Positions 9,544-52,490 of a stretch of 64,000 nt of DNA are shown piece by piece. The notes beneath the pieces were generated by a model. That model saw only the letters and a list, made by a program, of their open reading frames with translations, was not told the origin of the DNA and did not search any database. The position numbers and the translations under genes are program-made. Source of the DNA: an uncultured Chloroflexia bacterium (GTDB lineage Bacteria; Chloroflexota; Limnocylindria; Limnocylindrales; CSP1-4). The DNA lies in NCBI GenBank assembly GCA_963752475.1, contig CAVVYR010000004.1:32001-96000 (forward strand), written 5' to 3'. Each line of letters opens with the position of its first letter. Position 1 is the stretch's first letter.

Positions 9544-11019
9544 CTAGAGCTCCTTGACCGCCGCGATGAGGTTCTCCAGACCGGCCTTGGCGTCCGAGAA
9601 GAGCATCCCGGTCTTGGGGTCGGTGTAGAGGCTGTTGTCGATGCCGGCGTAGCCGCGGCCCATCGAACGCTTGATGACGACGATGGACTTGGCGTGATCG
9701 ACGTCGAGGATGGGCATGCCGTAGATGGGCGATGCCGGATCCGTGCGCGCGATGGGGTTGGTGACGTCGTTCGCACCGATCACCAGGGCCACATCACAGC
9801 GGTTGAACTCGGGGTTGATGTCCTCCATCTCCTTGAGCTGCGGGTAGGGCACGTTGGCCTCGGCCAGCAGCACGTTCATGTGGCCCGGCATACGACCGGC
9901 CACCGGATGGATGGCGTAGCTGACGTTCACGCCACGCTCCTCGAGGATGTCCCCGAGCTCGCGTACGGCGTGCTGCGCCTGGGCCACCGCGAGGCCGTAG
10001 CCCGGCACCACGATGACGTTCTCGGCATAGGCCAGCTGGATGGCCGCGTCGTCGACGCCGACCTCACGCACGGTGCCGCCACTGGCTGCCGGATCGGCCT
10101 GCGTGCCCTCACCGCCACCGAAGCCGCCGACCAGGATGTTCAGCAGCGATCGGTTCATGGCGTCCGCCATGAGCTTGGTGAGGATGCCGCCGGCCGCACC
10201 CACGAGGGCACCGGCGATGATGAGCAACGGGCTCTCCAGCACGAAGCCGGACATGGCCGCGGCGGTGCCGGTGAAGCTGTTCAGGAGGCTGATGACGACC
10301 GGCATATCGGCGCCGCCGATGGGCAGCACCATGGTCACGCCGAAGGTCAGCGAGGCCGCCAGCAGGACCAGCAGGACGCCGATCTTGACCTCGTTGCCGA
10401 GCTCGAGGACGGGCGACTCGCCCGCGCCGAGCACGAGCACGATGGTGGTCACGAGCGCCACCACACCAAGGGCGATGGTGGTGTACACGCCACCCGGCAC
10501 CTTGATGGGCTGACCCGAGATCAGACCCTGCAGCTTGCCCGAGGCGAGGATCGAACCGGTGAAGGTGATCGAGCCGATGAGCACGCCGAGGATGACGAAG
10601 ATGGTGGTGGAGATGGACTCCTTGTCGGTACCCACGATGAGCAGGTAGTCGAAGATGGCCACGATGGCCGCCGCGCCACCACCGACCGCGTTGAACAGCG
10701 AGACCAGCTGGGGCATCGCCGTCATGGCCACGCGCAGCGCGAGGAACATGCCCACGGCCGCGCCGATGGCGAAGCCGGCGATGATGATGATCAGCGCCTC
10801 GGTGGTGAGACCGCCGACCGCGCAAGCCTCGTGGGGGCAGTCGCGCAGGAGCAGGTAGACGAACGTGGCGATGACGGCCACGGTCATGCCGCCGGCCGAG
10901 ATGAGGTTGCCGTTCCGCCCGGTGGCGGGGCTGTTCATGAAGTGCAGGCCGATGACGAACGACCCCGCGGCCAGGGCACCGATGATGATGAAGAGGGCGC
11001 TAAGCGTTGACTGATCCAC
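9544..11019 (-). CDS. pntB: NAD(P)+ transhydrogenase subunit beta
   Basis: IGGADMPVVISLLNS, VPGYGLAVAQAQH, HPVAGRMPGHMNVLLAEA and KRSMGRGYAGIDN motifs. Confidence 0.97.
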   Translation of the reverse strand: MDQSTLSALFIIIGALAAGSFVIGLHFMNSPATGRNGNLISAGGMTVAVIATFVYLLLRDCPHEACAVGGLTTEALIIIIAGFAIGAAVGMFLALRVAMTAMPQLVSLFNAVGGGAAAIVAIFDYLLIVGTDKESISTTIFVILGVLIGSITFTGSILASGKLQGLISGQPIKVPGGVYTTIALGVVALVTTIVLVLGAGESPVLELGNEVKIGVLLVLLAASLTFGVTMVLPIGGADMPVVISLLNSFTGTAAAMSGFVLESPLLIIAGALVGAAGGILTKLMADAMNRSLLNILVGGFGGGEGTQADPAASGGTVREVGVDDAAIQLAYAENVIVVPGYGLAVAQAQHAVRELGDILEERGVNVSYAIHPVAGRMPGHMNVLLAEANVPYPQLKEMEDINPEFNRCDVALVIGANDVTNPIARTDPASPIYGMPILDVDHAKSIVVIKRSMGRGYAGIDNSLYTDPKTGMLFSDAKAGLENLIAAVKEL

Positions 11020-11021
11020 CG

Positions 11022-11342
11022 CTAGGCCTCCTTACCGTCGGCCTTGGGAGCGGTGGGCTTCTTCTTGAACATCTGCAGCATGCGGTCGGTGACCACGTAG
11101 CCGCCCACGACGTTCATGGCGCCGAAGGCGACGGCCACGAAGGCGAGGGCGTAGCCCAGGATGTCGTCGGCCTCGGCGGCGATGATCATGCCGCCGATGA
11201 CGACGATGCCGTGGATCGAGTTGGCACCCGACATGAGCGGGGTATGGAGGGTCGCGGGGACCTTGCTGATGACCTCGAAGCCGACGAGGACCGCGAGGAT
11301 GAAGATGACGAGTGAGCCAAGAAGGCTGATCTCACCGCTCAT
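11022..11342 (-). CDS. pntAB: NAD(P)+ transhydrogenase subunit alpha, membrane part
   Basis: VPATLHTPLMSGAN and VTDRMLQMFKK motifs. Confidence 0.96.
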   Translation of the reverse strand: MSGEISLLGSLVIFILAVLVGFEVISKVPATLHTPLMSGANSIHGIVVIGGMIIAAEADDILGYALAFVAVAFGAMNVVGGYVVTDRMLQMFKKKPTAPKADGKEA

Positions 11343-12487
11343 GCGGCACCCCCTTCGGCCAGCATCTGAGCCGTCGTCGGGTGCACCACCACGCCGTTGT
11401 GTGTGATCACGGTGCCAGTGGTGATCTCGTCATCGAAGTCGAACGTCATCTCCCCTTCCTTGATGAAGTGCGTCAGAAGCGCGCTGATGTTGCGGGCATA
11501 GAAGCCGCTGGCGCCGCCGGGCATGGTGGCCGGCAGGTTGGTGGGCGCGATGATGGTGACGCCGTTGTCCGTGGTGATCGTGTCGTCGGGCTGCGAGAGC
11601 TCGACGTTGCCGCCGAGTGCGCTCGCAGCCATGTCCACGATGACCGAGCCGGACTTCATGTTGTGCACCGCATCCGCGGTCACCAGCAGCGGCGGCCGGC
11701 GTCCCGGCACCTGGGCCGTGGTGATGACCACGTCCATGGAGCTGATGTGCGTATTGAGCTCTGCCTGCTGGGCAGCCTTCTCCTCATCGGTCAGCTCGCG
11801 GGCGTATCCGCCCTCACCGGTGGCGTCGGCGACCGACTCCAGCTTGAGGAACTGCGCACCCAGCGATTGCGCCTGTTCCTTGGTCTCGGAGCGCACGTCG
11901 TAGGCCTTGACCAGCGCGCCGAGGCGCTTGGCCGTGGCGATCGCCTGCAGGCCGGCGACGCCGATACCGAGGATGAGCACGTTGGCCGGCTTGGCTGTCC
12001 CCGCGGCCGTGGTCAGCAGCGGGAAGTAGCGGCCGTAGGCGTCCGCGGCCATGACCACGGCCTTGTAGCCGCCGACGTTGGCCTGCGAGGACAGCGCGTC
12101 CATCGACTGTGCACGCGAGAGCGTTCGCGGCAGCGTATCGAGGCTGACGGCGGTGACGCCGGCGTTGGCCAGCGACTGCGCGTTCTGCGGATCGATGAGC
12201 GGCTGCAGCAGGCCGATGACGACCTGGCCGGAGCGCAGCTTGCCGATCTCTTCAGGGGTCGGCTTCTGCACACGCAGCACGACGTCAGCATCGGCGTACA
12301 GCTGGTCCTCGCTCACGACCTTGGCCCCGGCCGCGGTGAAGTCCGCATCCGGGATCGAAGCGCCGTCTCCGGCGCCGGTTTGAATCAGGACCTCGTGCCC
12401 GGCACCGGTCAATTTGCCGATGGCCTCAGGCACAAGGGCGACCCGCCGTTCGTTGGGCGCGGTCTCCTTGACGGTGGCAATCCTCAT
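11339..12487 (-). CDS. pntAA: NAD(P)+ transhydrogenase subunit alpha, NAD(H)-binding part
   Basis: ERRVALVP, RAQSMDALSSQAN, GIGVAGLQAIATAKRLGA and GGYARE motifs; start taken at ATG 12487. Confidence 0.96.
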   Translation of the reverse strand: MRIATVKETAPNERRVALVPEAIGKLTGAGHEVLIQTGAGDGASIPDADFTAAGAKVVSEDQLYADADVVLRVQKPTPEEIGKLRSGQVVIGLLQPLIDPQNAQSLANAGVTAVSLDTLPRTLSRAQSMDALSSQANVGGYKAVVMAADAYGRYFPLLTTAAGTAKPANVLILGIGVAGLQAIATAKRLGALVKAYDVRSETKEQAQSLGAQFLKLESVADATGEGGYARELTDEEKAAQQAELNTHISSMDVVITTAQVPGRRPPLLVTADAVHNMKSGSVIVDMAASALGGNVELSQPDDTITTDNGVTIIAPTNLPATMPGGASGFYARNISALLTHFIKEGEMTFDFDDEITTGTVITHNGVVVHPTTAQMLAEGGAA

Positions 12488-12827
12488 GCAGGAACCCCGA
12501 GTGTCGAGAAGGTGATTGATGGCGCGCGCAAACACATCGGTCCGGCGCCAATAGGCCAAGTGTAATCCGATTCGCCCTCCACTCGCCTGCCAGTGGTCAC
12601 CTCTCGAAGGTGCCGACCTGCTCTGGTCGGCCTACGCGTGAGAAGCGACGGCCGATCGGGCGAGCAGCGACGGCCACCCGGGCGAGGAGCGCGCTCAGCA
12701 GTTCGCGCGTGTGCAAGCTTGACGTCGGAGCAAGACCGACCGCGGCCGGAACGCCCGCCACCATCACCCGGCACGACCTCAGCCCGGTCGAGCTCTCCGT
12801 CATCAGGCCCGAAGCGATCGACGCTGA

Positions 12828-14030
12828 CTACGTCGCCCGCTGATGCTCCTGGACCGACTGGAGGAAGAGCGATACCGGCCGATAGATGGCGTGGGCGAAC
12901 TTGGTGAAAGGCACCAGCAGCACCAGCTCCATGGCGATGGCCACGTGCACCAGGAAGCCGAGGTAGCCCCAGACGGGCGGCTGGGGCAGGTAGAGCGCCA
13001 GCTCGATGACGAAGCCGGTCAGCCCCGCCAGCCAGAGCAGCCAGAGGAAGGTCCAGTCGGAGGTGAAGGAGCGGCGAACCGTGCGCCCGTCCTTGCGCCA
13101 GCGGCGGATCATCAGGCCCGTGGCGCCGTACATCATGGCCAGCCCGGCCACGGTGCCCAGCAGTCGCACCGGATACCAGATGGGCACCTGCTCACCGGTG
13201 TGCTTCACGCCGATGATGTCCAGGCCGAAGTCGAGCGTGGTCGCGGCCAGCAGGCCCAGGAAGCCAAGCATCGTGGCCGCGTGCATGAACCAGGTCCGAC
13301 GCCACAACGGAACGGCGGCCTCCGACTCCTCGCAGTCGTCGCGGTAGCGCTTCTGACCCAGCGACTCGACGGCCAGCGATGACCACAGCGCCGAGCCCAC
13401 CGTGCGCAGCCCATCACGGCTGCGCAGCTCGCCCCAGGCGATGCCGCTGGCCGGAGCGGTGCGGCCGATCATCGTGAGCACGCCGACGACTCCAGCGACG
13501 AAGACGAGGATCATGGCCACGAGGCCGAAGTCATGGATGAACGGAGCCGGGATCCAATCGAAGAAGGCCATGCCGGCGTCCTCGGACGGCAGCGGCCCGG
13601 CGCGGTTGACGAACATGAAGAGCCCGAAGAGCACGGCCAACGCGACCGCGGCGATCGTGCCCAGCAGTGGCTGCAGATAGAGGAAGCGAGCGATGCGCGT
13701 GCGGTCGTAGGAGGCCGTGGCGAAGCGGCGCGAGGCAGCCATGAACTCGGACGGCTCGGCCTGACGCGGACAGGTCTCGGAGCACTCGCCGCAGGCGTAG
13801 CAGGTCCACAGCTCCTTCGAGGCCAGCAGCTCGTCCTTCATGCCCACCTGGGCGTAGCGGATGATCCGCCGAGGGAAGGTCGAGTCGGCCGTCGACAGCG
13901 GACAGATGGCGGTGCAGTTGCCGCAGTTGAAGCAGGCATCGACGTCGAAGGCGCCGTAGCGCTTGATCTCCGGCAGCAGCTCCGGGTCGACCCGTACGAC
14001 CGCGGTCTCACTCTGGGCCGTGGCGGTCAT
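12828..14030 (-). CDS. HdrC-like 2x[4Fe-4S] domain fused to a NarI/cytochrome b-like membrane domain (QmoC-like)
   Basis: CFNCGNCTAICP and CYACGECSETCP; about 6 TM helices with WFMH and LVHV...PFTKFAH histidines. Confidence 0.85.
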   Translation of the reverse strand: MTATAQSETAVVRVDPELLPEIKRYGAFDVDACFNCGNCTAICPLSTADSTFPRRIIRYAQVGMKDELLASKELWTCYACGECSETCPRQAEPSEFMAASRRFATASYDRTRIARFLYLQPLLGTIAAVALAVLFGLFMFVNRAGPLPSEDAGMAFFDWIPAPFIHDFGLVAMILVFVAGVVGVLTMIGRTAPASGIAWGELRSRDGLRTVGSALWSSLAVESLGQKRYRDDCEESEAAVPLWRRTWFMHAATMLGFLGLLAATTLDFGLDIIGVKHTGEQVPIWYPVRLLGTVAGLAMMYGATGLMIRRWRKDGRTVRRSFTSDWTFLWLLWLAGLTGFVIELALYLPQPPVWGYLGFLVHVAIAMELVLLVPFTKFAHAIYRPVSLFLQSVQEHQRAT

Positions 14031-14320
14031 CGCTTCACTTCCTTCTCCGGCAGCGCGTAGCGCGGGTAGTCGCCATCGACTCCGTCCTCGACCGCCTGGC
14101 CGTACTTGCGCATGGCCGTCAGCGTCCAGAGCACGTCCCGCGCTTCGAAGCCGGTGGCCGTGGCCAGTTGGGGCACGGTCATGGGACCGTCCTTGAGGGT
14201 CTTCCTGACGGCCGCCTTGCGCTTGTTCGTGACCTTGACGTAGGCCAGCAGGTCTTCGGACGCGGGGCCTTGTCGCTCCTTGAAGACGTCCAGGGCGGTC
14301 GGCACCTTGGTCTCGCTCAT
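14027..14320 (-). CDS. Small winged-helix protein inside the Hdr-like operon
   Basis: GPMTVPQLATATG....VLWTLTAMRKYG pattern; 4-bp overlaps on both sides. Confidence 0.75.
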   Translation of the reverse strand: MSETKVPTALDVFKERQGPASEDLLAYVKVTNKRKAAVRKTLKDGPMTVPQLATATGFEARDVLWTLTAMRKYGQAVEDGVDGDYPRYALPEKEVKR

Positions 14321-16464
14321 GCAGGCACCTCCACCTTCACCGCCTCGCCAGGCGCGGCTGGTGCGCTGGTGATGGCGTCGATCATGGCCCGGTACTGGTC
14401 CATCTCCCAGCCCTGCACGTCGATGGCCTCGCTGTCACAGACGGCCACGCAGGCACCACAGCCGACGCAGGCGACCGGGTTGACGTAGGCCTTCTGCTCG
14501 GTGACGCCTTCCTCGGTCTCGATCTCGGTAAGGCTGATGGCGCCGTCGTACTGGCAGGCGTCGGTGCAAGCCCCGGCGCCGACGCAGCGAGCCAGGTCGA
14601 CGCGCGCCACGAACGGCTCCATCTCCACGTGGTCCTTGGCCAGCACGGTGGCGGCCTTGACCGCCGCGGCCGAAGCCGAGGACGTGGACTCGGTGATGTC
14701 CTTGGGGCCCTGTGCCGCACCAGCCAGGTAGATGCCCGGGATGGACGTCTCCACCGGTCGCAGCTTGGGGTGCACCTCCAGCAGGAAGTCATCGTTGCCC
14801 ACCGGCGCCTTGGTCATGTCGATGATGTCGGCCACGTCGCGCGGCTGCATGCCCACACCGAGCACGACCAGATCGGCGGGCACGTCCAGCTGGGCCCCGA
14901 AGGTCAGCGTGTCGGTCACACGGACCGCGAGCGGGTAGTCGCCCGACTCGGCCACCGACACCACCGGCCGTGCATGGTCGTCGAAGCGCAGGAAGCGCAC
15001 GCCCAGCTTGGAGGCGTCGACGTAGTAGTCCTCCTGTGCCTTCTCGTACGTGCGGATGTCGCGGTAGAGGTCGTAGACGGCGGTGTCCGGCAGGCGCCGT
15101 CGCACCTCGTTGGTGGCCTGCAGCGTGGCCGTGCAGCACACACGCGAGCAGTATTCGTTGAGCGAACCCGACGGCCCGGGCTCGTCGACGCCTGCGATCT
15201 GCCGTGAGCCGACGCAGTGGATGAAGGCCACCGACCGCGGTGCCTTTCCGTCGACCAGCACCTGACCGCCGGTCGGACCCTCCTGGTCGAGCATCCGCTC
15301 GAGCTGCGGCAGCGTGATGACCCGCTCCGAGGTGCCGGATCCGTACTCGCCCTCACGCGGTGTGTAGTGGTCGTAGCCGGTGGCCACGATGACGGCGCCG
15401 GCCTCCACGACCTCGTCCTCGGGCACCTCGTCGATGGTGATGCCCTCGCCGGCCGCCAGCACGCATTCGCCACAGCGCGTGCAGTTGGCCCAGTCGATGG
15501 CATGCAGCGCCGGGATGGCCTCGGGATGCGGCTTGTAGAAGGCCTTGCGCGTCGAGAGCCCATCGTCGAACTCGTCGTCCACGACCGTGGGGCAGGCATC
15601 CACGGCCACGGCCGGGTCGCTCAGTCGTTCATCGACACCCCGCGGCTGCGTGCGCAGGGTGGCGCTGAAGTCCCCGAGGAAGCCGGTCAGGGCGTGGAGC
15701 TCGGTGTAGGTGCGGACCTCGATGCGGTCGTCGGCGGTGACCTCGTCGATGAGGCGGCGCACGAGCGGCACGGCCGGCTCGTCGGTGGGATAGACCGTGC
15801 CCAGCTGCATCGTGCGTCCGCCGAGGAACGGCGTCTTCTCGATGAGCGTGACCTCCTGGCCCATGGCCGCGCAATCGAGCGCGGCCCGCAGGCCGGCCAC
15901 GCCGCCGCCGACCACGAGGACGCGGTGAACCGCGTCCACCCGAACCGGTTGCAGCGGTTGCAGCAGGCGGGACTTGCCCACCGCCGCGCGCACGACCGAG
16001 ACAGCCTTGTCGGTCGCGGCTTCGCTGTCGTGTGGATGAGCCCAGCTGACCTGTTCGCGGATGTTGGCCGGCAGGAACAGGTAGGGGTTCATGCCGGCGC
16101 GGATGACGGCCTTGCGGAAGGTGGTCTCGTGGAGCGATGGCGTGCAGGCGGCCACGATGACACGGTCGAGCCCCAGCTCCTCGATGTCCTTGGTGATCTG
16201 CCCCTGGCCCTCATCGGAGCACATGAAGGGGATGTGCCGCGACACCGACACGCCATCCTCGTGGCTGAGCGACTGGGCCACGGCATCGACGTCGACGACA
16301 TCGCTGATGTTGCCGCCGCAGTGGCAAACGTAGACGCCCAGCTTCTCGCCGGGACCGGCCGTCAGGTCGTCCGCGCTCAGCTCGATGGGGCCGAGGCCCT
16401 CGTCGCCGGCCGGCTCGGGGCAATCCTCACCCTGATCGGTCGCGGGCCATTCCTCACTGACCAT
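14317..16464 (-). CDS. HdrA-family flavo-iron-sulfur protein (long)
   Basis: GVYVCHCGGNI, VVGGGVAG, HCVGSR...CSRVCC, HPKLRPVET, GPKDI and a C-terminal ferredoxin. Confidence 0.93.
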   Translation of the reverse strand: MVSEEWPATDQGEDCPEPAGDEGLGPIELSADDLTAGPGEKLGVYVCHCGGNISDVVDVDAVAQSLSHEDGVSVSRHIPFMCSDEGQGQITKDIEELGLDRVIVAACTPSLHETTFRKAVIRAGMNPYLFLPANIREQVSWAHPHDSEAATDKAVSVVRAAVGKSRLLQPLQPVRVDAVHRVLVVGGGVAGLRAALDCAAMGQEVTLIEKTPFLGGRTMQLGTVYPTDEPAVPLVRRLIDEVTADDRIEVRTYTELHALTGFLGDFSATLRTQPRGVDERLSDPAVAVDACPTVVDDEFDDGLSTRKAFYKPHPEAIPALHAIDWANCTRCGECVLAAGEGITIDEVPEDEVVEAGAVIVATGYDHYTPREGEYGSGTSERVITLPQLERMLDQEGPTGGQVLVDGKAPRSVAFIHCVGSRQIAGVDEPGPSGSLNEYCSRVCCTATLQATNEVRRRLPDTAVYDLYRDIRTYEKAQEDYYVDASKLGVRFLRFDDHARPVVSVAESGDYPLAVRVTDTLTFGAQLDVPADLVVLGVGMQPRDVADIIDMTKAPVGNDDFLLEVHPKLRPVETSIPGIYLAGAAQGPKDITESTSSASAAAVKAATVLAKDHVEMEPFVARVDLARCVGAGACTDACQYDGAISLTEIETEEGVTEQKAYVNPVACVGCGACVAVCDSEAIDVQGWEMDQYRAMIDAITSAPAAPGEAVKVEVPA

Positions 16465-17857
16465 GGTGGGCCTCCTCGATGGCGCCCGCGGCAGCCAGTT
16501 GTTCGGGGCTCATCTCGCTGACCGAGACGAGCGGCTGCGCCTGCTGTGGTCTGGCCCCGACCGTCGAGGCCAGGTAGCCCTCGACCTTGGCCGCGGCGGC
16601 GCTCGCCTCGACCACGGTGTCGACGATGTCCTTGGGCGCGATGGCCGTACCGGTGGCGAAGAGCCCGGGTGTGCTCGTGCGCGTGGTGTCGAGCTTGGGT
16701 TCGGCCGGACGGATGAAGCCATCCCGGTCGAGGTCCACACCCACGAACGAGCGCGGGTCGGTGCCGGGCTGCATGCCCACCGAGAGCACGACGAGGTCAT
16801 GCAGCGGCTCATCGACCGAACCGTCCCCCTCCATGCGCTCGATGCGGAGCTTGAGATCGCCGTCTTCCTGCTCATCGATGCGCGCGACCTTGGCCTTGAC
16901 GAACTCGATGCCCATGGCCTTGGCCGTCTGGTAGAACTGCTCGTAGCCCTTGCCGAAGGCGCGGATGTCCATGTAGTAGATCGTGATGTCGGCCAGCGGC
17001 AGCGAACCCGAGAGCAGCATCGCCTGCTTGACCGCGTACATGCAGCACACGCGCGAGCAGTAGGGCACGCCGAGCGTCTCGTCGCGCGACCCTGCGCACT
17101 GGACGTAGGCCACGCGGTCGGGGATCTTGCCGTCCGACGGCCGCAGGACGCGCCCGTAGGGCCCGTTGGGCGAGAGCAGGCGCTCCATGTCCAACCCGGA
17201 GAGCACGTTGGCGGCCTCGCCGTGGTACTCGGCCTTGGCCTCGGTGGGCGTGGTCTGATAGCCGGTCGCCAGCACGGCCGCGTCGAAATGCAGCGTCTCG
17301 ACCCGGTCCTGCTGCGTGAAGTCGATGGCCGTAGGCGTGGTGGGGCAGGCCTTCTCGCACTTGCCGCAGAAGATGCACTCGTCAGCGTCGATGAGCGCGT
17401 ACTGCGGGATGGCCGTGCCGAACGGGATGTAGGCCGCGCGGCGAGCGCCCAGCTCACCCTCGAACTCGTGCGGCACCTCAACGGGGCAGGCGTACTCGCA
17501 CAGGCGGCAGCCGATGCAGTCGTCCTCGCTCACGTAGGTGGCCTTGCGCCGAACCCTGGCGCTGAAGCCGCCCTCGGGGTCGGGCTTCAGCTCCTCGATC
17601 TCCGAGTAGGCCCAGATGTCCACGTTGTCGTGGTGAGCCGCGCTGGACATGCGCGGGGTGGTGATGCAGGAGGCGCAGTCCATGGTCGGGAAGACCTTGG
17701 AGAGAGCGATCATCTTGCCCCCGATGCTGGGCTCCTTCTCGACCACCAGCACCTTGCGGCCACGGTCGGCCAGGTCCAGGGCGGTCTGCAGGCCGGCGAT
17801 GCCGCCACCCACCACGAGCACATCGTGATCGGCTGCGACGGTGGTGGTCCTGCTCAT
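16454..17857 (-). CDS. HdrA-family flavo-iron-sulfur protein (short)
   Basis: VVGGGIAG, FPTMDCASC, CIGCRLCEYACP / CIFCGKCEKACP, QCAGSR...CSRVCCMY and DIRAFGKGYE motifs. Confidence 0.93.
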   Translation of the reverse strand: MSRTTTVAADHDVLVVGGGIAGLQTALDLADRGRKVLVVEKEPSIGGKMIALSKVFPTMDCASCITTPRMSSAAHHDNVDIWAYSEIEELKPDPEGGFSARVRRKATYVSEDDCIGCRLCEYACPVEVPHEFEGELGARRAAYIPFGTAIPQYALIDADECIFCGKCEKACPTTPTAIDFTQQDRVETLHFDAAVLATGYQTTPTEAKAEYHGEAANVLSGLDMERLLSPNGPYGRVLRPSDGKIPDRVAYVQCAGSRDETLGVPYCSRVCCMYAVKQAMLLSGSLPLADITIYYMDIRAFGKGYEQFYQTAKAMGIEFVKAKVARIDEQEDGDLKLRIERMEGDGSVDEPLHDLVVLSVGMQPGTDPRSFVGVDLDRDGFIRPAEPKLDTTRTSTPGLFATGTAIAPKDIVDTVVEASAAAAKVEGYLASTVGARPQQAQPLVSVSEMSPEQLAAAGAIEEAHHGQ

Positions 17858-18339
17858 GCCGCGGCCTCTGTTGCCGGCTCGTCGACCGGCTCGGGCGCCG
17901 GGGCCACGGGCCCGATAGGCCCGAGGTCCTCGAGCACCTTTTCCATGTCGGCGACTTCCTTGATGAAGGCCTTGGTGCAGACCGAGCAGATGGCCGTCAG
18001 CTTCAGCCGGCGGATGTCGATGTCGCGCTCCTTCATCAGCTTGTAGGTGCGATCGATCTGCTTGGCCGTCTGTTCGAACGAGCCCTTGTACGGGCTATCG
18101 GTGCCGCAGGACGCGATGAGGACGGCGTCCACGCCCTGCTCGAAGCAGTAGAGATAGAACGACTCAGGGAACATCACCGGGTCGGGCGTGGGGATGACGA
18201 AGGTGTTGGGCGGGTACTCCATGTGCGCCTGGCCCGTGGCGTCGATGCCCGGGTAGGAGCAGAGCAGTGTGGCGATGACGAGCATCCGGGTCGGACGGAT
18301 CTCCGCCCTCTTCGGCTCGGTCGCCGCAGGTGCCGTCAT
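17854..18339 (-). CDS. MvhD/FlpD-like iron-sulfur subunit with atypical Cys pattern
   Basis: CSYPGIDATG...YP.N..VI...GVDAVLIASC...GIDIRRL-like scaffold, located before hdrA. Confidence 0.82.
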   Translation of the reverse strand: MTAPAATEPKRAEIRPTRMLVIATLLCSYPGIDATGQAHMEYPPNTFVIPTPDPVMFPESFYLYCFEQGVDAVLIASCGTDSPYKGSFEQTAKQIDRTYKLMKERDIDIRRLKLTAICSVCTKAFIKEVADMEKVLEDLGPIGPVAPAPEPVDEPATEAAA

Positions 18340-18380
18340 GCCTCGGCCTCCCCTTGCCTATCGCTGGTGTCGTCGGGCGC

Positions 18381-18647
18381 CTACTTGGCGCGCTTGACGA
18401 AGACCCGCTCGTAGCCGTCGGCCGCGGACACACCTACGAAGCCATGTCCGACCTTGTTGCACCAGGCCGTCATGTCCGACTTGGTTTGCGGATCGGTGGT
18501 CAGGATCTCCAGCACGCCACCTACGGCCACGCCGCCGATGGACTTCTTGGCTTCGAGCAGCGGGCCCGGGCAAGCGCTGCCGCGGGCGTCGGCAACGGCG
18601 CCGACCTCGAGGGCATCTACGGCGGTCTGGTCGAGCAGGTCAGTCAT
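18381..18647 (-). CDS. TusA-family sulfur carrier protein
   Basis: DARGSACPGPLL (CPxP motif), LEILTTDP..KSDMTAWC; start ATG 18647. Confidence 0.92.
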   Translation of the reverse strand: MTDLLDQTAVDALEVGAVADARGSACPGPLLEAKKSIGGVAVGGVLEILTTDPQTKSDMTAWCNKVGHGFVGVSAADGYERVFVKRAK

Positions 18648-18678
18648 TGGGGGTTCCTTCCTTCTGGCGCTGGGGTGG

Positions 18679-19047
18679 CTAGTAGTTGAGCGTGGCCGAG
18701 GCCGAGGCGATCTCGGACACGAGGCGCGCGGCACCGATGACCTCGACGCCGTCGAGCAGGTCGTCCTCGGTGATGCCGCGGTGCTCCAGGCAGGGTGAGC
18801 AAGGCATGAGCAGACCACCGATGGCGGCGACGGTGTCTACCAGTTCCTGCAGTTCCGGGTAGGCGTGGGCGTGCACGTCCTCGGCGCCGCCCTTGGTCAC
18901 GAGACGGACCCCCTCGGCCTGGAAGGCCATGACGACCTCGATCTCGGAGACGAGCGCCCCGGCAGCCATGACGAACGGCAGCGTGGCCAGTTCAGGCTCC
19001 TCGGGTCCGTGGGTCACGATGATGACCAGCTTCTCTGGTTGGTCCAT
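18679..19047 (-). CDS. DsrE-family sulfur transfer protein
   Basis: VTHGPEEPELATLPFVMA, FQAEGV.L, CSPCLEHRGI and GAARLV motifs. Confidence 0.88.
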   Translation of the reverse strand: MDQPEKLVIIVTHGPEEPELATLPFVMAAGALVSEIEVVMAFQAEGVRLVTKGGAEDVHAHAYPELQELVDTVAAIGGLLMPCSPCLEHRGITEDDLLDGVEVIGAARLVSEIASASATLNY

Positions 19048-19111
19048 GTGGCGCGTGAGCCTCCTGCTTGCCTCCGGTCTGGGTCGTCGCGGTCGGACTC
19101 GGGTCCGCCCC

Positions 19112-19154
19112 GATATGTCTACATGTTTCGGTCATCTATATGCGTGGGCCATAT
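19112..19154. promoter_or_regulatory. Candidate operator in the dsrE / hemerythrin divergent gap
   Basis: AT-rich patch with adjacent ACATG-N7-CATCT (19121-19137) and ATATG-N7-CATAT (19138-19154). Confidence 0.45.
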
Positions 19155-19264
19155 TGTACCTGTCGCGGGGGCCATGTGGACCTGTATGCGCACATGCCAT
19201 CGAGGGCATGCTTCCCGCAGGCGGAGCCCGCTACCGTCTGGACCAACGCAGGAGGACGATCGAC

Positions 19265-19759
19265 GTGACTTCGGTATCGACCGCCGGACACGAGCACCAC
19301 GAGCGGCTCACGACCATGCTTGATGGACTACCGGCCCTCGCCGGCATGCTCGATGAACGGCCCCGCCCGGCGCGCTTCGAGGAACGCTTTCGTACCGTCC
19401 ACAACAGCGTCACCGGCACGCTCCTGCCCCACATCGACCGCGTCGAAACGACGCTCTACCCCGAGCTCGACCGACTCATGCAGAACCGGCACTCGATGAC
19501 CCAGATGCGTAACGAGCACGAGGACATCCGCGGGCTCGTGGAGCGGCTGGGGACGTTCGGCGAAGCCATCGAGGCTGATGCCCTTGGGCCCGCCGGCACG
19601 ATCGGACTGCGGCGGGTGCTATACCGGCTCTACGCCCTGCTCAAGGTCCACCTGGCCGAGGAGGAGGAGTACCTGCGCGTGCTCGAACACAACCTCTCCG
19701 ACGGCGAGCAGGCCGAACTGGTGAAGGGCATGGAGCACGCGGTCGCCGAGCCGCTGTAG
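19265..19759 (+). CDS. Hemerythrin-like (HHE) domain protein
   Basis: HEHH, PHIDRVE..LYP, MRNEHEDI and HLAEEEEY motifs; GTG start after AGGAGG. Confidence 0.85.
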   Translation: MTSVSTAGHEHHERLTTMLDGLPALAGMLDERPRPARFEERFRTVHNSVTGTLLPHIDRVETTLYPELDRLMQNRHSMTQMRNEHEDIRGLVERLGTFGEAIEADALGPAGTIGLRRVLYRLYALLKVHLAEEEEYLRVLEHNLSDGEQAELVKGMEHAVAEPL

Positions 19760-20294: not shown

Positions 20295-20717
20295 CTATGG
20301 CGTGCGACGTCCACCGGCGATGGCGTCGAGATAGTCGGCGTTGAACTCACCGATGAGGCGAGCACGCTCGCGCATGACCACGGCCCAGTCGTCGAGCGCC
20401 TCCTGCCCGGCATCGGTCAGTTCGTAGGCACGTCGGCGCGGTCCGGCCGACTCCTCTGCCCAAACCGAGCTCACCAGCCGGTCGCGTTCGAGGTCGCGCA
20501 GCGTGCGATAGACGAGGCCCACATCGAGCGGCCCGTTGCTGACACGCATCTCCTCGAGACGCCCGAGGATGGCGTAGCCATAGGAATCGCCGCGGGCGAG
20601 CATGGCCAGGACGAAAGGCTCGATCCAGCGGCGCCGGGCGGCCAGCGGATTCCAGCCATGATGCGTCGGCGAACCGTCAGGATCTCGCGCGGCGATGCGC
20701 TCAATGGCTTCAGACAT
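20295..20717 (-). CDS. PadR-family transcriptional regulator
   Basis: GDSYGYAI, VYRTLRDLERDRLV and GPRRRAYELTDAGQEAL motifs. Confidence 0.93.
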   Translation of the reverse strand: MSEAIERIAARDPDGSPTHHGWNPLAARRRWIEPFVLAMLARGDSYGYAILGRLEEMRVSNGPLDVGLVYRTLRDLERDRLVSSVWAEESAGPRRRAYELTDAGQEALDDWAVVMRERARLIGEFNADYLDAIAGGRRTP

Positions 20718-40788: not shown

Positions 40789-43700
40789 ATGCAGATCATC
40801 GCCGGGAAGCCGGTCTACAGCGCGACCGATCTCGTCGGATTCCTCGCCTGCAACCACCTGACGGATCTCGAGCGCTGCAAGCTGCAGGGCCTCGTGGAGA
40901 AGCCGCACCGCGATGACCCTGAGCTGGACATCATCGTCAAGCGCGGCCTGGAGCACGAGCAGACGTACATCGGCCGCCTCAAGGAGTCCAGGGACGAGAT
41001 GTCCACGACTACTCGGCCGACCGACCGGAGGGCATGCACCCCGGCGAGTTCTACCGTGCCCAGGCCGCCATCACGCGACAGGCCATCGAGCGTGGCGATG
41101 ACGTCATCTTCCAGGCCTGCTTCTTCGACGGGACGTGGCTCGGTTTCGCGGACTTCCTGCTGCGGGTGGACGACCCCGAGGCGCCGCTGGGCTGGTCCTA
41201 CGAGGTCGCCGATACCAAGCTGGCGCACTCGGTCAAGGCCGGCGCCCTGCTCCAGATCTGCGTCTACAACGAGATGCTGAGCGAGATCCAGGGCGTCTAC
41301 CCGGAGCGCATGTACGTCGCGCTCGGAGGCAAGGACAGGGAGACGCAGGAGTTCCGTACCGCGGACTTCCGGGCCTACTTCCGGGCTGTGCGTCGCCGCT
41401 TCCTGCAGTACGCCGCCGGGCCTGAGCCGACCTATCCGCCCGCGCTCCCGTCGTACCCGGAGCCCGCGGAGCACTGCCGTGTCTGCTCGTGGGACCCCAT
41501 CTGCCGCGACCGGCGCCGGACGGATGATCACCTCTCGCTCGTGGCCAACATCACGGCCAAGACGCGGGCCTCGCTCGTGGAACGGGAGGTGGAGACACGA
41601 CGTGGTCTCGCCGAGCTGGAGCTGCCCATGGCGCCGCCGCTTCAGGGCACCCGGCCGGAGGTGCTGGAGCGCGTGCATCGGCAGGCGGAGCTGCAGGTCC
41701 AGGGAGAGGACGAGGACCGCAAGATCTACGAGCTGCTGCCCCCGCACGAAGCGGATGACGGGACGCTGGACACGACCAAGGGCCTGCTGGCGCTCCCGGA
41801 GCCCAACCCCGGTGACCTCTACCTGGACCTCGAGGGCGACCCGTTCATCGGCGATGACGGCATGGACTACCTCTTCGGCCTGCTGCAGCCGTCCGAGGTG
41901 GACGCGGACGGCGAGCCGCTGTTCCATGCCTTCTGGAGCAAGGACGCCTCGGGCGAGGTGACCGACGCCGGCGAGAAGGCCGCCTTCGAGGCCTGCATCG
42001 ACAAGATCATGGAGCTCCTCGAGGAGGACCCCAACCTCCACGTGTACCACTACGCGCCCTACGAACCGAGTCACTTCGGCCGGCTGATGGGCCGCTACAA
42101 CACGCGCCAGGACGAGGTCGACCGACTGCTTCGTGGCGACATCCTCGTGGACCTCTACGGGGTCGTGCGGCAGGGGCTACTGGCCTCGGTCGAGAGCTAC
42201 TCGATCAAGAAGCTGGAGCCGTTCTACGACTTCACCCGCGGCATCGAGCTGCGCGCGGCGAACGACTCCATCGTCGAGTTCGAGCGCTGGATGGAGCTCG
42301 GCAGCCACGGCGATGGCGTGGGCCAGGAGATCCTCGACCAGATCGAGGCCTACAACCGCGACGACGTCGTATCGACGCTGCTGCTTCACCGCTGGCTGGA
42401 GACGCTGCGCGATGAGCTGGCCCGCAAGCGCGGCGAGGTGCTGCCCAGGCCGGAGGTCAAGGACGGCGAGCCCGATGAGGACCTGGCCGAATACCTGCGG
42501 CGCATCCAGGACGTCGCCGAGCCGCTGGTCGCGGACATCCCCGATGACGAGACCGAGCGACCGTGGACCGACGACGAACGCGCGAGGCTGTTGCTCGCCA
42601 ACGTACTCGGCTGGCATCGCCGAGAGCAGAAGCCCGAGTGGTGGGCCTACTTCCACATGCTGGAGATGCCGCCGGACGAGCTCATCGACGCCCGAGAGCC
42701 GCTCGGGGCACTCGAGCTGGTCGGGGTCGAGGATGAGGTGAACCGGACGTACCGCTACCGCTTCCCGCCGCAGGACTTCGACGTGGGTAGCCAGCCGATC
42801 GACCCAGCCAACGGCAAGGCCATGCCGGTCGAGGACGCTCCGACGGACCGCAACGAGATCGTGCTGCGCTTCCCGCGCGGTCGGGAGATCGAGCACCCGA
42901 CGGCGCTCGTGCCCAAGAACATCATCCCCACGCCCGGCCAGGAGGAGCGGCTGCTCGACCTCGGCCGCTACGTCGTGGACCACGGGCTGGAGGGTGACGG
43001 CGACTACCGCGCCGGGCGTGACATGCTGCGCCTTCGGTCGCCACGGGTGATCGGCCACCTCGATGGTGAGCCACTGCGCCACGACGGCGAGTCGGCCGGC
43101 GATGCGGCCCGGCGACTGGTGCAGGTCCTCGACAGCACATGCCTGGCCATCCAGGGCCCACCCGGCAGCGGCAAGACCTGGATCGGCGGGCGCATGATCC
43201 TCGACCTCGTGGCCCAGGGCAAGACCGTCGGCGTCACCGCCGGCAGCCACAAGGTCATCGGCAACCTGCTCGACAACGTGTGGGAGGCGCAGAAGGATCA
43301 CCCAGCGTTCCAGGATCAGAAGGTGCGCATCCGCCAGAAGCCCGGCAACAAGAGCGAGCCCACCTGCGACTACGCGGAGCCCATCTCCCGGGCGGAGGAC
43401 GTGGCGGCTGCCTTCATCGATGGCGCGATCGACGTCGTCGGCGGCACCAGCTGGCTGTGGTCCAGCGCCAAGATCCCGCCGCAGACCGTCGATGTCCTCT
43501 TCATCGACGAGGCCGGCCAGTTCTCGCTGGCCAACGCGCTGGCGGTCTCGGCCGCAGCCTCGTCGGTCGTGCTGCTGGGCGATCCGCAGCAGCTGGACCA
43601 GCCCATCAAGGGCTCGCATCCGCCGGGCGCCGAAGGCAGTGCGCTCGGACATCTGCTCGGCTCGGAGTCGGTCATGCCGGCCGAGCGTGGTCTCTTCATG

Positions 43701-44342
43701 GACAAGACCTGGCGGCTGCATCCGCAGATCTGCGACTACACCTCGGAGGTCTTCTACCGCAGCGAGCTCCAGCCGGAGGATGGCAACGAGCGGCAGGCGC
43801 TCACGGGCTCGGGCCTCGCGGACGGCGAGGGCATCCGCTTCATCGCGGTCGAGCACGCCGAGGCGCGCAACGACAACAGCTCCATCGAGGAAGCTCGAGT
43901 CATCGCTGACGTCGTCTGTGACCTGCTGAACGGTCGGGCCACCTGGATCGACCGTGAGCTCACCACGAAGTCGATCGACCCGCGGGACATCCTCGTCATC
44001 ACGCCCTACAACGCGCAGCGGACGTTGATCAACGCGGAGCTGGCCAGGCGCGGCGAGGCTTGCGCGCGCGTGCCCGTCGGGACCGTGGACAAGTTCCAGG
44101 GTCAGCAGGCGCCGGTGTCGATCTACTCGATGGCCACGTCGCGGCCGGAGGATGCGCCGCGCGGCATGGAGTTCCTCTACTCGCTCAACCGGCTGAACGT
44201 AGCGACCTCGCGAGCGCGCTGCCTGACGCTGGTGGTGGCCTCACCGGCGCTGGTGGCAGCGAACGCGCGCACGCCGCAGCAGATGGTGCTGGCCAACGCG
44301 CTCTGTCGGCTGGAAGAAGTCGCCCGGGAGCGATCGTCATGA
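40789..44342 (+). CDS. TM0106-family RecB-like nuclease + RNase H-like domain + SF1 (Dna2/Upf1-like) helicase; one apparent frameshift near 40988
   Basis: SATDLVGFLAC, ADFLL...DTKL, CRVCSWDPIC, LDLEGDP, YNRDD, QGPPGSGKT, IDEAGQ, GDPQQL, TVDKFQG and RLNVATSRA. The 40675 and 41034 frames join at K-E-S/Q-G-R-D-V. Confidence 0.88.
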
Positions 44343-46196
44343 CGACCGCGGTGGTCACGGGTATCGAGGCCCTGACGCGCGCCGATGACGGCACGCTCGT
44401 CATCCCGGAGGACCGCGAGGCCTGGCGCGAGTGGGTCAGCGCCACCAAGGCGCGCAACTGGCTCAACGACGACCCGCTGCTCGACTGGCTCGACCGTTTC
44501 GGCACGGACAAGGGCTTCGAGCGCGACCAGGAGGCGGAGGGGTTCGACCCTCGCACGGACTTCCGCCCGTTCATCTTCGGCCAGGGTGACGCCTTCGAGC
44601 AGGGCGTGATGCGGCTGCTGGCGGAGAGGCACCCGGTCGCCACCATCGCGGAGACGTGGGAGGACAGCCGCTCGCTCGATGCCGCCGCGGCCACGCTTGC
44701 CGCGATGCGCGACGCCACGCCGATCATCGCCCAGGGCGTGCTGCGGGACCCGGAGCACCGGACCTACGGCGTGGCCGACCTGCTCGTGCGTTCGGACGTG
44801 CTGCGCGAGCTGTTCCCCGATGACATCAGCGAGGAGGACGCGGCCGCAGGGGCGACGTCGCTCTGGCTGCCCGCGATGCACTACCGCGTCATCGACATCA
44901 AGATGCGCACGCTCGACTTGCGGGCCGACGGCTCGGTCGGGCGCTCCGCGGACACGCTCGCCTACCAAGCGCAGGTGTGGGTCTACAACACGGCGCTCGG
45001 GCGCATCCAGGGCTTCGAGCCGCCCGCCGGCTACCTGCTGGGGCGCAACTGGAAGCGACGTGGCGAGCGTGGATCGGGCTGCCTGGACCGGCTCGGCCGC
45101 ATCGACATGGACAACACCTTCGACCGGTATGACGGTCAGAGCCTCTCGTCGCTTGCACAGCAGGCACACCAGTGGATCCGCCAAGTGCGGGCGCAGGGGG
45201 CCGAGTGGGAGGTGCTGCCGGTGCCCACGCGGCCGGAGCTCTACCCGCACATGGGCAACGACTACGACGACCCGTGGCACACCGCCAAGGCCAGGATCGG
45301 TGACGAGCTCGCGGAGCTGACGATGCTGCCGGGCGTGAACCCGCGGCGTCGCCGGGCCATGCACGAGCGCGGGATCACGCGCTGGACGGATTCGGCCGTG
45401 TCGGCGCAGTCGCTGGAGCTGAGCGGCATGGCCGCTCGGATGTGTGAGGCGGTGCTGGCGGCGAACCGGGCCGATGAGCCGGTCGTGCTGCCGGAGCGGC
45501 TGGATCTCGAGGACGACGCCTGGCGCGAGGTCGCGCCGCTGGAGCTGTACGTGGACTTCGAGACGGTCTCGTCGCTGGCCGATGACTTCTCCGCGCTGCC
45601 GGCCGAGGGTGGGCTACCCCTGATCTTCCAGATCGGCTGCGGGCGCATGGAACATGGGGAGTGGCAGTTCGACCAGTGGACCGTGGACCGGCTGGACGAG
45701 CCGTCGGAGGTGGCCATCATCGACGCCTGGGTGGCGCGGGTGCGGGAGCTGTGTGAAGTGCGTGGGATCAAGCTCGACGAGGCACGGCTCTTCCACTGGA
45801 GTCCGGCGGAGACGTCGACGCTGACCACGGCCTACAACGCGGCTCGGAAGCGGCACCCGGAGAACGAGTGGCCGTTGCTGCCGTGGTTCGACCTGCTGGA
45901 CCGGGTGGTGAAGGCGGCGCCACTGGGCGTGACCGGCGCGTTCGGCTACGGGCTCAAGGACATCGCCAAGGCGATGCACGCGATGGGCTTGATCGAGACC
46001 GCGTGGGGTGACGGGTTGACCGATGGCCTCGGCGCGATGGTCGCGGCGTGGCGCGTGGACGAAGCGGTCGCGGAGCTAGGTGGCAAGCTGCTCGACGACC
46101 CGCTGATGCAAGAGGTCGCCGACTACAACCAAGTCGACTGCCAAGTCATGGCCGAGATCCTGGAGTTGGCTGCGCGATCGCGAGGCTACGCGGTGA
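44339..46196 (+). CDS. Second RecB-like nuclease + RNase H-like protein, no helicase; apparent extra T near 46166
   Basis: WVSAT, ADLLVRSD, VIDIK, Q..VY, YVDFET and YNQVDC. Removing one T gives EILEWLRDREATR* ending at 46196; as written the ORF runs to 46372. Confidence 0.8.
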
Positions 46197-46662
46197 GGAC
46201 GTCGCGCTGCTCTTCCCCAGGCGGGGCGGCCACCGGGAACTCCCGGGTCAGCCAACTGCGCACGTCATCTGCATCGCTGTATCCGTTCGCCTTGAGGATG
46301 TCGACGATGTCACGGGCGGCGATCACCACAATGGGATGCCCGTCCGACTTGAACTCCTCGTACGCCTGTTGATTGAGGTACGAAGTGGTCACGAGCACGC
46401 CGAACATCCGATTCCGGATGCGCGAAATCAGTCGAGCGAGATCGCGCACGTTGACCGAGTTCTCGAATGCATATCGCTTCGCTTCGAGCGCGAACTCGAG
46501 CCGCACCGGGTCGCTCTCCGGTCCTACGCGCACAGTCCCAAACGCATCTCTTCCACCGTCGCGACTCGGCCGCGTCATCGTGTATTCGATCCTGCCTGCC
46601 TGCATCTCCCACAGCCTCGCAGCGCATGCCTCGAAGTCGGTTGGGTTCTCGAAGAGGTCATG
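46186..46662 (-). pseudogene. C-terminal catalytic fragment of an AspBHI/MspJI-like (Mrr-cat) restriction endonuclease
   Basis: DFEACAARLW...TRPSRDGGRDAFG...FALEAKRY...RLISRIR..FGVLVTTS...DGHPIVVI; the N-terminal part is absent and an in-frame stop lies just upstream. Confidence 0.8.
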
Positions 46663-46698
46663 ACCGAAATTCTCGGCTGGCTACGAGTGAACCGCTAG
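46654..46698 (+). pseudogene. Displaced duplicate 3' end of the upstream nuclease gene
   Basis: Encodes EVMTEILGWLRVNR*, matching QVMAEILE(W)LRDR at 46142-46182. Confidence 0.7.
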
Positions 46699-46706
46699 GA
46701 GTTCGG

Positions 46707-49700: not shown

Positions 49701-49794
49701 CCACGAAGGGGAGCGACCGATGGCAGTGACCTGGCGGCTTGAGCGGTCCCTGCCGGGAGATCTCTTCAACTCGTTCGCGGCCGCCGTCGCCTGA
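46707..49794 (+). CDS. PLD nuclease - SF2 helicase - DUF3427 protein (SauUSI-like type IV restriction enzyme); apparent extra A near 48125
   Basis: RLHAK...GSSNLT, AATGTGKT, VDEFHH, LTATPER, DLFNEGVD, QQLGRGLR and YRDYAISPDLIHWESQS; the two frames join at FEGR/ISAELRL; less GC-biased codons. Confidence 0.87.
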
Positions 49795-52101: not shown

Positions 52102-52490
52102 AGCTGGCCGACCTTGACGCACGACTGCTGGCGATCCCCGGATTCAAGGAGGGCTTCGACGAGTCCTATCCCTACTTCGACCTCGCGCTCCAGATCGGGG
52201 GGCTGCGTGCGGACATGGACATGACGCAGACCGAGTTCGGGCGCCTTGTCGGCGTGCCACAGTCGACGATCGCGCGGCTCGAATCGGGCAGGCAGGCACC
52301 GAGCGTCGCGACGCTCAAGCGCATCGCTGTGGCCACCGATACCGAACTGATCGTCGAGTTCCGTCGGCCCAAGCGGAAGCGGCGAGCGAAGTCAGCGAAG
52401 GCTGCGTCATCATCCGCGGGCAACGCACACCCGAGCGAGCCGCTGGCCGCATCCGGCACCGACGATCGACGAGGAGGGGGCGACCGATGA
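52098..52490 (+). CDS. XRE HTH antitoxin (HigA-like)
   Basis: MTQTEFGRLVGVPQSTIARLESG..PSVATLKRIA; ATGA overlap with the toxin gene. Confidence 0.85.
   Translation: MKLADLDARLLAIPGFKEGFDESYPYFDLALQIGGLRADMDMTQTEFGRLVGVPQSTIARLESGRQAPSVATLKRIAVATDTELIVEFRRPKRKRRAKSAKAASSSAGNAHPSEPLAASGTDDRRGGGDR

Follow-up and report, generated by a model that had tools for sequence, protein, structure and literature searches.

We analyzed a 64,000-nucleotide (nt) stretch of DNA, hereafter the window, from the genome of an uncultured soil and sediment Chloroflexota bacterium (GenBank assembly GCA_963752475.1, contig CAVVYR010000004.1, positions 32,001–96,000). The assembly, in which this is contig C4, comprises 4.25 Mb in 38 contigs and is 88.8% complete and 5.8% contaminated. 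Within the window, whose GC content is high (0.62–0.72), seven co-oriented minus-strand open reading frames (ORFs) run from position 19047 to 12828. They encode, in this order, a DsrE-family and a TusA-family sulfur carrier, an MvhD-like adaptor, two HdrA-like flavoproteins, a winged-helix protein of 97 amino acids (aa), and a QmoC-like membrane subunit. Their third-position GC content (0.88–0.92) is that of real genes of the window. The first-pass annotation, made from the letters alone, had described seven co-oriented genes with the last five overlapping. This was confirmed by the coordinates and by Pfam and NCBIfam profile scans, through which the families were assigned. The overlaps amount to 4 nt for MvhD/HdrA, 11 nt for HdrA/HdrA, and 4 nt each for HdrA/winged helix and winged helix/QmoC. 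DsrE is separated from TusA by 31 nt, and TusA from MvhD by 41 nt.

The DsrE-family carrier (122 aa; 18679–19047) scored 56.5 bits against PF02635 (gathering cut-off 22.7). It contains a Cys-x-Pro-Cys motif that recurs in 47 of 48 relatives of the same type, often as CGPC. The TusA carrier (88 aa; 18381–18647) scored 64.8 bits against PF01206 (gathering cut-off 28.6); its ATG sits within a longer GTG-initiated ORF (18381–18818), and the active-site CPGP is kept in 70 of 71 sequences. The MvhD/FlpD-like iron–sulfur adaptor (161 aa; 17854–18339; PF02662, 62.4 bits) matched the MvhD chains of the PDB with E values of 1e-8 to 1e-9. Its AlphaFold2 model had a predicted local distance difference test (pLDDT) score of 80.3. 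The cysteines of this protein are rearranged: two of the five canonical positions are kept, and Cys64 and a CSVC motif (Cys118 and Cys121) are new. The canonical MvhD of the same genome carries CNWC, MCSGR, and GCxxxxxC.

Both HdrA-like subunits combine Rossmann and Fer4 domains according to Pfam. HdrA-A (467 aa; 16454–17857; "QmoA-like") matched the NCBIfam HdrA2 model with 462 bits over model positions 133–561, and its two CxxCxxCxxxCP motifs represent a 2×[4Fe-4S] ferredoxin insert. Against the PDB, it scored 380 bits with methanogen HdrA (8rvv_A) and 125 bits with the solved HdrA of the sulfur-oxidizing Hdr-like (sHdr) system (6tjr); the PDB holds no Qmo structure. The best 120 of its 7,763 relatives bear only generic names, such as "heterodisulfide reductase subunit A". 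HdrA-B (715 aa; 14317–16464; "QmoB-like") matched HdrA2 with 621 bits over positions 1–643 of 777 and lacks a fused MvhD. It has an N-terminal iron–sulfur domain and a C-terminal ferredoxin domain, with invariant cysteines at positions 47, 49, 82, 107, 417, 439, 443, 444, 627, 633, 637, 666, 669, 672, and 676.

The last gene encodes the QmoC-like membrane subunit (400 aa; 12828–14030). Its best NCBIfam match was qmoC (NF038018), at 179.6 bits and below the cut-off of 300. An HdrC-like 2×[4Fe-4S] domain, recognized by Fer4 dicluster families, is joined to a NarI/HdrE-like membrane domain (Nitrate_red_gam, 29.9 bits). Across 32 sequences, eight cluster cysteines are invariant, as are four histidines in the membrane part (166, 250, 362, and 380). 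Such a four-histidine pattern is expected for two hemes b, as in NarI and HdrE. Judged from its motifs, the membrane-anchored set would thus hold two flavins, numerous [4Fe-4S] clusters, an MvhD-type cluster, and two hemes, and it is always found with TusA.

Relatives were collected through the QmoC-like protein, with one genome per species, and the best 80 of 100 were kept. By the titles of their records, 60 belong to Chloroflexota, mostly Limnocylindrales/Limnocylindria, and 20 to Actinomycetota, where the carriers include Propionibacteriales, Nocardioidaceae, Cellulomonas, and the isolate Actinotalea lenta. Gene counts were made on 69 loci, those in which the sequence upstream of QmoC extends over 6.2 kb or more. 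TusA, the MvhD-like protein, and both HdrA-like proteins were each present in 69 of 69. The same gene order recurred in all of them; therefore, the arrangement is not due to chance. A DsrE-family gene was found in 63 loci. It is of the window type, upstream of TusA, in 46, and of the DrsE_2 type in 22, five of which also have the window type. Actinomycetota have the DrsE_2 type only, placed between mvhD and hdrA. An unconserved tusA/dsrE linkage had been named at the outset as grounds for giving up the proposed system, and these counts reveal a linkage that is complete for TusA and largely conserved for DsrE. Among 201 genomes sampled from the class, the QmoC-like gene occurred in 33, with 25 of 60 genomes in the window's own family (f1), 7 of 66 in family f4, and none in the other families. 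One Chloroflexota locus (L092, 4900–10900) has, a few kilobases downstream of the cassette, a divergent TusA (26%), a DsrE (33%), a short HdrA-like segment, and a weak match to the QmoC query (25%); this second set may be a paralogous module.

The cassette exists in two forms. The ferredoxin form, to which the window belongs, accounts for 18 of the 69 loci and has a second HdrA of about 715 aa. In the other 51 loci, the first HdrA is about 900–1000 aa long and the second is shorter (about 580 aa). Pfam scans of two of these loci (L091, from Actinotalea lenta, and L030) revealed Fer4_20 and a NAD(P)-binding Pyr_redox_2 insert of the GltD/NfnB kind in the first HdrA, and we call this the NAD(P)H form. 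A quick maximum-likelihood tree of 37 sequences (cassette proteins and the genome's own Mvh-linked HdrA, with two long branches flagged) placed all A subunits in one clade and all B subunits in another. Support from the Shimodaira–Hasegawa-like approximate likelihood ratio test (SH-aLRT) was 100 for each. Within both clades the two forms separate. The A and B clades each contain both forms; therefore, the A/B pair is older than the split between the forms.

The two forms replace each other between the same neighbors at one chromosomal site. In a close relative (L033), the flanks match those of the window on both sides (72–97% by tblastx), and the cassette between them is of the NAD(P)H form (49–63%). 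In two further loci (L023 and L027), the window's form sits in the same arrangement as in the window; in three others (L036, L057, and L069), the NAD(P)H form is inverted with respect to pntAB. This interchange in situ argues that both forms do the same job with different low-potential partners. The cysteines of the MvhD-like protein covary with the form (18 of 18 versus 44 of 44). In the ferredoxin form, cysteines follow strands 1 and 3, with LLCSYPG in 17 of 18 sequences and ASCG in all 18. The NAD(P)H form has PC[ST]SG in 43 of 44 and G[DE]EC in all 44. The CSVC motif after strand 4 is common to both and present in 61 of 62 sequences. Each form has five cysteines, four of them at the C-terminal edge of the sheet, where the canonical ligands lie. 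From the strand topology of the model, we infer that the ligands may have migrated around a retained cluster.

The small winged-helix protein (97 aa; 14027–14320) had no match in Pfam, including its HTH families, or in NCBIfam, and was recognized by its AlphaFold2 model, a four-helix winged helix with a pLDDT of 90.9. Foldseek related it to ArsR/SmtB, Z-alpha, and TFE folds (E of about 1e-3). Comparison with IclR, ROK, MarR, ArsR, and Z-alpha domains gave VIA Z values of 9–11.3, with no clear closest family. This resemblance to winged helices of the ArsR/SmtB, MarR, IclR, and Z-alpha kinds would suit a DNA-binding autoregulator of the operon. When 1.84 billion representatives were searched with a profile of the protein, 494 clusters matched at E values up to 0.001 and 278 at up to 1e-10, and the best 150 clusters were almost all 65–136 aa long. 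The Atlas neighbors of the protein carry mostly Thermodesulfobacteriota, Chloroflexota, and Bacteroidota labels and in part ArsR-family labels, which would again suit a regulator; they serve as a lead only.

Other features of the protein point away from DNA binding. An alignment of 36 homologues showed invariant P46, T48, P50, A53, M70, R71, G74, E78, and Y88, and no conserved cysteine, including any that could act in sensing. The conserved helix at the recognition-helix position is filled with hydrophobic residues (consensus EVLxWVMGMRRYG). Of the 58 loci where both neighbors are defined, 49 have an ORF bearing the motif between HdrA-B and QmoC; the other nine have a gap of 253–290 nt there. 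The small gene begins at a distance of -4 or -1 nt from the HdrA-B stop in 46 of 49 loci, and it ends at -4 to +2 nt from the start of QmoC in 49 of 49. This coupling, with 4-nt overlaps on both sides of a mid-operon gene in most loci, holds in both forms and both phyla. Because of the near-universal coupling and the hydrophobic helix, we regard the protein as probably a stoichiometric accessory subunit. A role as autoregulator is possible, though on the unlikely side, and it would leave the rest of our interpretation unaffected.

Gene fusions were also considered as evidence for a subunit. They join the HdrA C-terminus to the winged helix (P0174 and P0122) or the winged helix to the QmoC N-terminus (P0156, P0194, and P0202). 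They were discounted as possible assembly artifacts, since they are single-member clusters that join already overlapping genes, and P0202 is visibly frameshifted. In a separate lead, a 165-aa protein (P0222) found on two contigs fuses a TusA-like domain without the active-site cysteine to the winged-helix domain of the operon; the small protein may work with TusA.

The first-pass annotation had listed CCG-domain HdrB, AprAB, DsrAB, lipoate-binding protein, and hydrogenase as absent from the window. A Pfam scan of about 60 ORFs, which did not take in every small one, bore this out. For the whole genome, the statement does not hold for HdrB and hydrogenase. The only CCG (HdrB-type) genes of the genome lie in an hdrC-hdrB-hdrA-mvhD-mvhG-mvhA-hycI locus on contig C8 (C8:223340–230560; L017 7340–14559), which encodes a group 3c-type hydrogenase and heterodisulfide reductase, and in its strain copies on C23 and C24. 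These copies are 98.5–99% identical to the C8 hdr-mvh region, which indicates strain heterogeneity in the assembly. The operon of the window shares HdrA and MvhD modules with the electron-bifurcating HdrABC-MvhAGD complex, and methanogen HdrA proteins are its best solved relatives. Unlike that complex, which is encoded separately on C8, it has neither HdrB nor hydrogenase and includes a membrane anchor.

The module set is also that of the closest known system, the canonical ("type I") QmoABC of sulfate reducers and green sulfur bacteria, which likewise combines a pair of HdrA-like flavoproteins with an MvhD-type module and with a membrane subunit made of HdrC-like 2×[4Fe-4S] and diheme NarI/HdrE-like parts. 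An ordinary QmoABC of sulfate reduction or sulfite oxidation, whose partner adenosine 5'-phosphosulfate (APS) reductase lies elsewhere in the genome, would explain this set and the qmoC match of the membrane subunit. An aprAB pair elsewhere in the genome, together with a place of both HdrA proteins in bona fide QmoA/QmoB clades, would likewise have undone the initial proposal. AprA (TIGR02061) was not found in the genome, where the best match reached 19 bits against a cut-off of 641.75. It was found in none of the 201 class genomes, and five further cluster-carrying genomes, four of them from Actinomycetota, gave no match above the cut-off. None of the 14 control genomes gave a positive control for this model, and a gene missing from incomplete genomes is not proven absent. 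DsrA, the sulfite/nitrite reductase family NIR_SIR, and Sat-type ATP sulfurylase (PF01747) were not found in the 88.8%-complete assembly either. The host may depend on reduced sulfur sources, as judged from these gene searches, which did not cover CysDN-type sulfurylase and CysH.

The operon differs from canonical QmoABC in its gene content as well. In the canonical complex, the MvhD domain is fused to the C-terminus of QmoB; here, MvhD is a separate upstream gene with altered cysteines. The QmoC-like protein stays below the equivalog cut-off, the winged-helix gene is additional, and TusA and DsrE stand in the place of the redox partner, with no AprAB, Sat, or Dsr found. Canonical membership fails on three features, namely the fused MvhD, the QmoC equivalog score, and the AprAB partner, and an ordinary Qmo complex is close to refuted.

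A further counterpart is the "type II" QmoABC of Ammonifex degensii and "Ca. Vulcanisaeta moutnovskia", whose flavoproteins are described as nearer to HdrA than to canonical QmoAB and which occurs with or without Apr and Dsr (Neukirchen et al. 2023, PMC10504309; as far as the portion available to us goes). For both flavoproteins of the window, too, HdrA2 and methanogen HdrA were the top matches. That portion of the paper mentions neither the TusA/DsrE linkage nor the small winged-helix gene nor the two insert forms. Its supplementary table of assemblies and of Dsr, Apr, Qmo, and Hdr-type proteins gave no match for Limnocylindria, Cellulomonas, or Actinotalea. By the description given there, the cluster probably falls in type II Qmo. 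We found no published description of this gene set in the literature outside the unread PDF supplements, and Supplementary Figs 11–13 of PMC10504309 may show such clusters. The earlier label of an undescribed system needs a qualification: a type II Qmo without Apr or Dsr has already been remarked on, in general terms, in the same part of that source.

The operon was also said to fit neither Qmo nor sHdr. In the part of the sHdr literature available to us, TusA and DsrE-family carriers accompany the pathway and an HdrA-like flavoprotein is present (PMC11094781). The window shares the genetic linkage of TusA and DsrE-family sulfur transferases and the HdrA-like flavoproteins. The sHdr system is soluble and has HdrB1B2 subunits with CCG domains, HdrC1C2, and lipoate-binding proteins, whereas none of the seven proteins here has a CCG domain, two HdrA proteins are full-length, the QmoC-like subunit lies in the membrane, and similarity to sHdrA is weak.

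What the sequences show is a tightly coupled gene set with motifs for cofactor binding, which is conserved across Limnocylindria and Actinomycetota and exists in two homologous forms. We consider it modestly probable that its products form a real membrane complex, independent of APS reductase, whose redox partner is carrier-bound sulfur. The first-pass annotation had proposed a membrane complex, possibly bifurcating, that couples quinones to persulfide on TusA and DsrE. The genomic part of this proposal held; the chemistry remains inference, as no substrate or direction was seen.

By analogy with Qmo, Hdr-Mvh, and Flx-Hdr, the QmoC-like subunit would exchange electrons with the menaquinone pool. 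The two HdrA flavins are candidate sites of bifurcation or confurcation. The insert of HdrA-A would act as the low-potential port, for ferredoxin in the window's form and for NAD(P)H in the sister form. As the MvhD domain of QmoB suggests by analogy, the MvhD-like protein would contact the sulfur-side partner, that is, the carriers. Electrons would then move between menaquinone, the low-potential carrier, and sulfane sulfur or a disulfide on TusA/DsrE. In the direction that we favor, though tentatively and by analogy, a carrier persulfide or disulfide would be reduced to sulfide, driven by quinol together with the low-potential donor in a flavin-based confurcation. A carrier disulfide would form when sulfide leaves. 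This direction is favored because the sulfane/sulfide couple lies in potential between menaquinone and ferredoxin or NAD(P)H, and because many hosts are heterotrophs able to use an electron sink. A further reason is that a persulfide relay from TusA and DsrE to a flavoprotein reductase, ending in sulfide release, has been proposed for sulfur reduction in Pelobacter (PMC3543383, in the part available to us). The Pelobacter protein is a single soluble polypeptide of the pyridine-nucleotide-disulfide oxidoreductase type, unlike the multi-subunit, quinone-linked HdrA-type complex considered here.

The same complex could instead work oxidatively, as an sHdr analogue without HdrB or lipoate. Sulfane sulfur on TusA/DsrE would be oxidized, and the electrons bifurcated to menaquinone and to ferredoxin or NAD(P)+. 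The association of TusA and DsrE with the sHdr pathway, as the available part of PMC11094781 has it, fits this direction. The genome makes sulfide oxidation and sulfite disposal plausible too. A second carrier locus on contig C6 (C6:618642–621469; L018 7642–10469), unlinked to the Qmo-like operon, encodes DsrE2-like, TusA, DsrE2-like, and TusA proteins followed by a sulfide:quinone reductase (SQR)-like flavoprotein, and C7 encodes one sulfite-oxidase-family molybdoenzyme. Among the 201 class genomes, SQR was found in 22 of the 33 with the cluster and in 64 of the 168 without it; the total of 86 includes the unpublished genomes G096 and G159, both without the cluster. Within the window's family, the association vanishes (16 of 25 with the cluster versus 23 of 35 without), and the figures for f4 (5 of 7 versus 21 of 59) are too few to judge. 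The operon also lacks the CCG domain and the second HdrC of sHdr, HdrA-A is far closer to methanogen HdrA than to sHdrA by the bit scores given above, and many carriers are heterotrophic Actinomycetota, such as Propionibacteriales and Cellulomonadaceae. We regard the oxidative direction as unlikely.

Several observations weigh against carrier-bound sulfur as the partner at all, beginning with the missing SQR association in the window's family. No subunit has a known disulfide or persulfide site, the operon has no CCG/HdrB domain, and no redox-active cysteine pair beside a flavin was identified in its subunits. Six of the 69 loci have TusA without a detectable DsrE. The DsrE of Actinomycetota is of a different, DsrE2-type subtype with a single conserved cysteine, so the family as a whole cannot require Cys-x-Pro-Cys. 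The idea of a redox-active dithiol on DsrE is attractive but does not hold generally. The proposed direction and substrate rest on analogy and on redox potentials. Evidence of expression is thin as well. RNA-library contigs from four runs of three studies (sediment and salt marsh) cover dsrE, tusA, both hdrA genes, the small gene, and qmoC, differing from the operon at 0–5 positions per 137–298 nt, but they are shallow (depth 2–7) and DNA carry-over is possible. A further 493-nt contig, which lies on dsrE and the region upstream of it, differs at 13 positions. As contigs, these data reveal neither strand nor transcript structure. None of the four runs has depth over the 3' end of qmoC and the 268-nt spacer to pntAA; the stretch without cover (12312–13039) is not evidence for a transcript end. 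They give a weak hint that the operon is possibly expressed.

Some of these observations lend weight to a redox-balancing enzyme, a general ferredoxin (or NAD(P)H):menaquinone oxidoreductase, in which TusA and DsrE would serve cofactor or cluster maturation, protection, or regulation rather than act as substrates. The lack of a recognizable sulfur-reactive catalytic site, the dispensability of DsrE in six loci, and the interchangeable ferredoxin and NAD(P)H modules all suit such an enzyme. A gene for a hemerythrin-domain protein (19223–19759, plus strand; PF01814, 47.2 bits; start codon uncertain) is divergent from dsrE, and a homologue adjoins 56 of the 60 Chloroflexota-type cassettes and none of the 20 from Actinomycetota. 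Its place is divergently upstream in the ferredoxin form and, in most NAD(P)H-form loci, directly 3' of qmoC. The repair of iron centers is a function of some hemerythrin-like proteins, and the neighbor hints at protection or sensing. This explanation is at odds with the presence of TusA in all 69 loci of two phyla, always at the head of the operon, and with the conservation of the carriers' active-site cysteines. To our knowledge, no other redox complex needs a dedicated TusA. Redox balancing without a sulfur substrate appears improbable to us.

The reading with carrier-bound sulfur as the partner can be extended further. The operon would then be the ferredoxin-type member of a widespread class, so far undescribed biochemically, of membrane-bound, flavin-based confurcating or bifurcating complexes whose mid-potential substrate is protein-bound sulfur, either a TusA/DsrE persulfide or a carrier disulfide. 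This extended claim is speculative, and we consider it rather doubtful in its full form.

The surroundings of the operon contain a few further features. A promoter-like site on the minus strand, about 105 nt upstream of dsrE (19153–19180), reads TCCACA-16-TACAAT and agrees at 9 of 12 positions. It was the sole match in 12400–19500, against a shuffle mean of 0.5, which is weak evidence. No terminator-like site was found at the operon. A PadR-family regulator (20295–20717, minus strand) is encoded upstream of the hemerythrin gene, in conserved flanking DNA. As L033 retains this regulator next to the other cassette form, it is part of the flank rather than of the cassette. Downstream, 268 nt from qmoC and on the same strand, pntAA-pntAB-pntB (9544–12559) encode a proton-translocating NAD(P) transhydrogenase. 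We considered pntAB as a component of the system and rejected it. It lies beside the cassette in close relatives, in either orientation, but in only one of the 20 Actinomycetota loci (L088), which points to lineage synteny.

Farther away, a defense-island-like stretch (41034–49794, plus strand) is partly of lower GC content (0.62–0.63 at 46–50 kb). It encodes a 1102-aa RNase-H-like/AAA_11/AAA_12 helicase and a 770-aa protein without a Pfam match. In the same stretch, a PLD-nuclease/ResIII helicase ORF (46467–48287) overlaps a Helicase_C/DUF3427 ORF (47992–49794) in another frame; the two may be one split or frameshifted gene. An alkylmercury lyase (MerB) and toxin–antitoxin-type small genes (MazE-like, PIN-domain, and FitA-like ribbon-helix-helix) lie at 52487–53149 (plus), 54719–55015 (plus), 56198–56602 (minus), and 57845–58075 (plus). 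Two tandem pairs of an extracytoplasmic function (ECF)-type sigma factor and a NosD-like right-handed beta-helix protein occupy 58550–63673 (minus), and upstream of these pairs lies a third beta-helix protein.

Qmo and Hdr complexes hold a central place in sulfate respiration, sulfur oxidation, and methanogenesis, and every known form works with a defined redox partner. In the present case, in at least two phyla, the same machinery has sulfur carriers in the place of that partner, together with exchangeable ferredoxin and NAD(P)H input modules. New observations of this analysis are the interchange of the two forms in situ, the rewiring of the MvhD-like cysteines that covaries with the form around an invariant CSVC motif, and the near-universal coupling of the winged-helix gene. 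The hemerythrin association in Chloroflexota and the lack of an SQR association are also new. A cultured carrier, Actinotalea lenta, is among the related loci, which makes the question directly testable. If the carriers are the substrate, the complex would connect the quinone pool with zero-valent sulfur by a new enzymatic route, and it would do so in abundant bacteria of soil, freshwater, and sediment that are not regarded as sulfur cyclers. Such a "protein persulfide/heterodisulfide reductase" on the quinone pool would be a hidden, energy-conserving tie between zero-valent sulfur cycling and respiration in soil and sediment heterotrophs that do not reduce sulfate.

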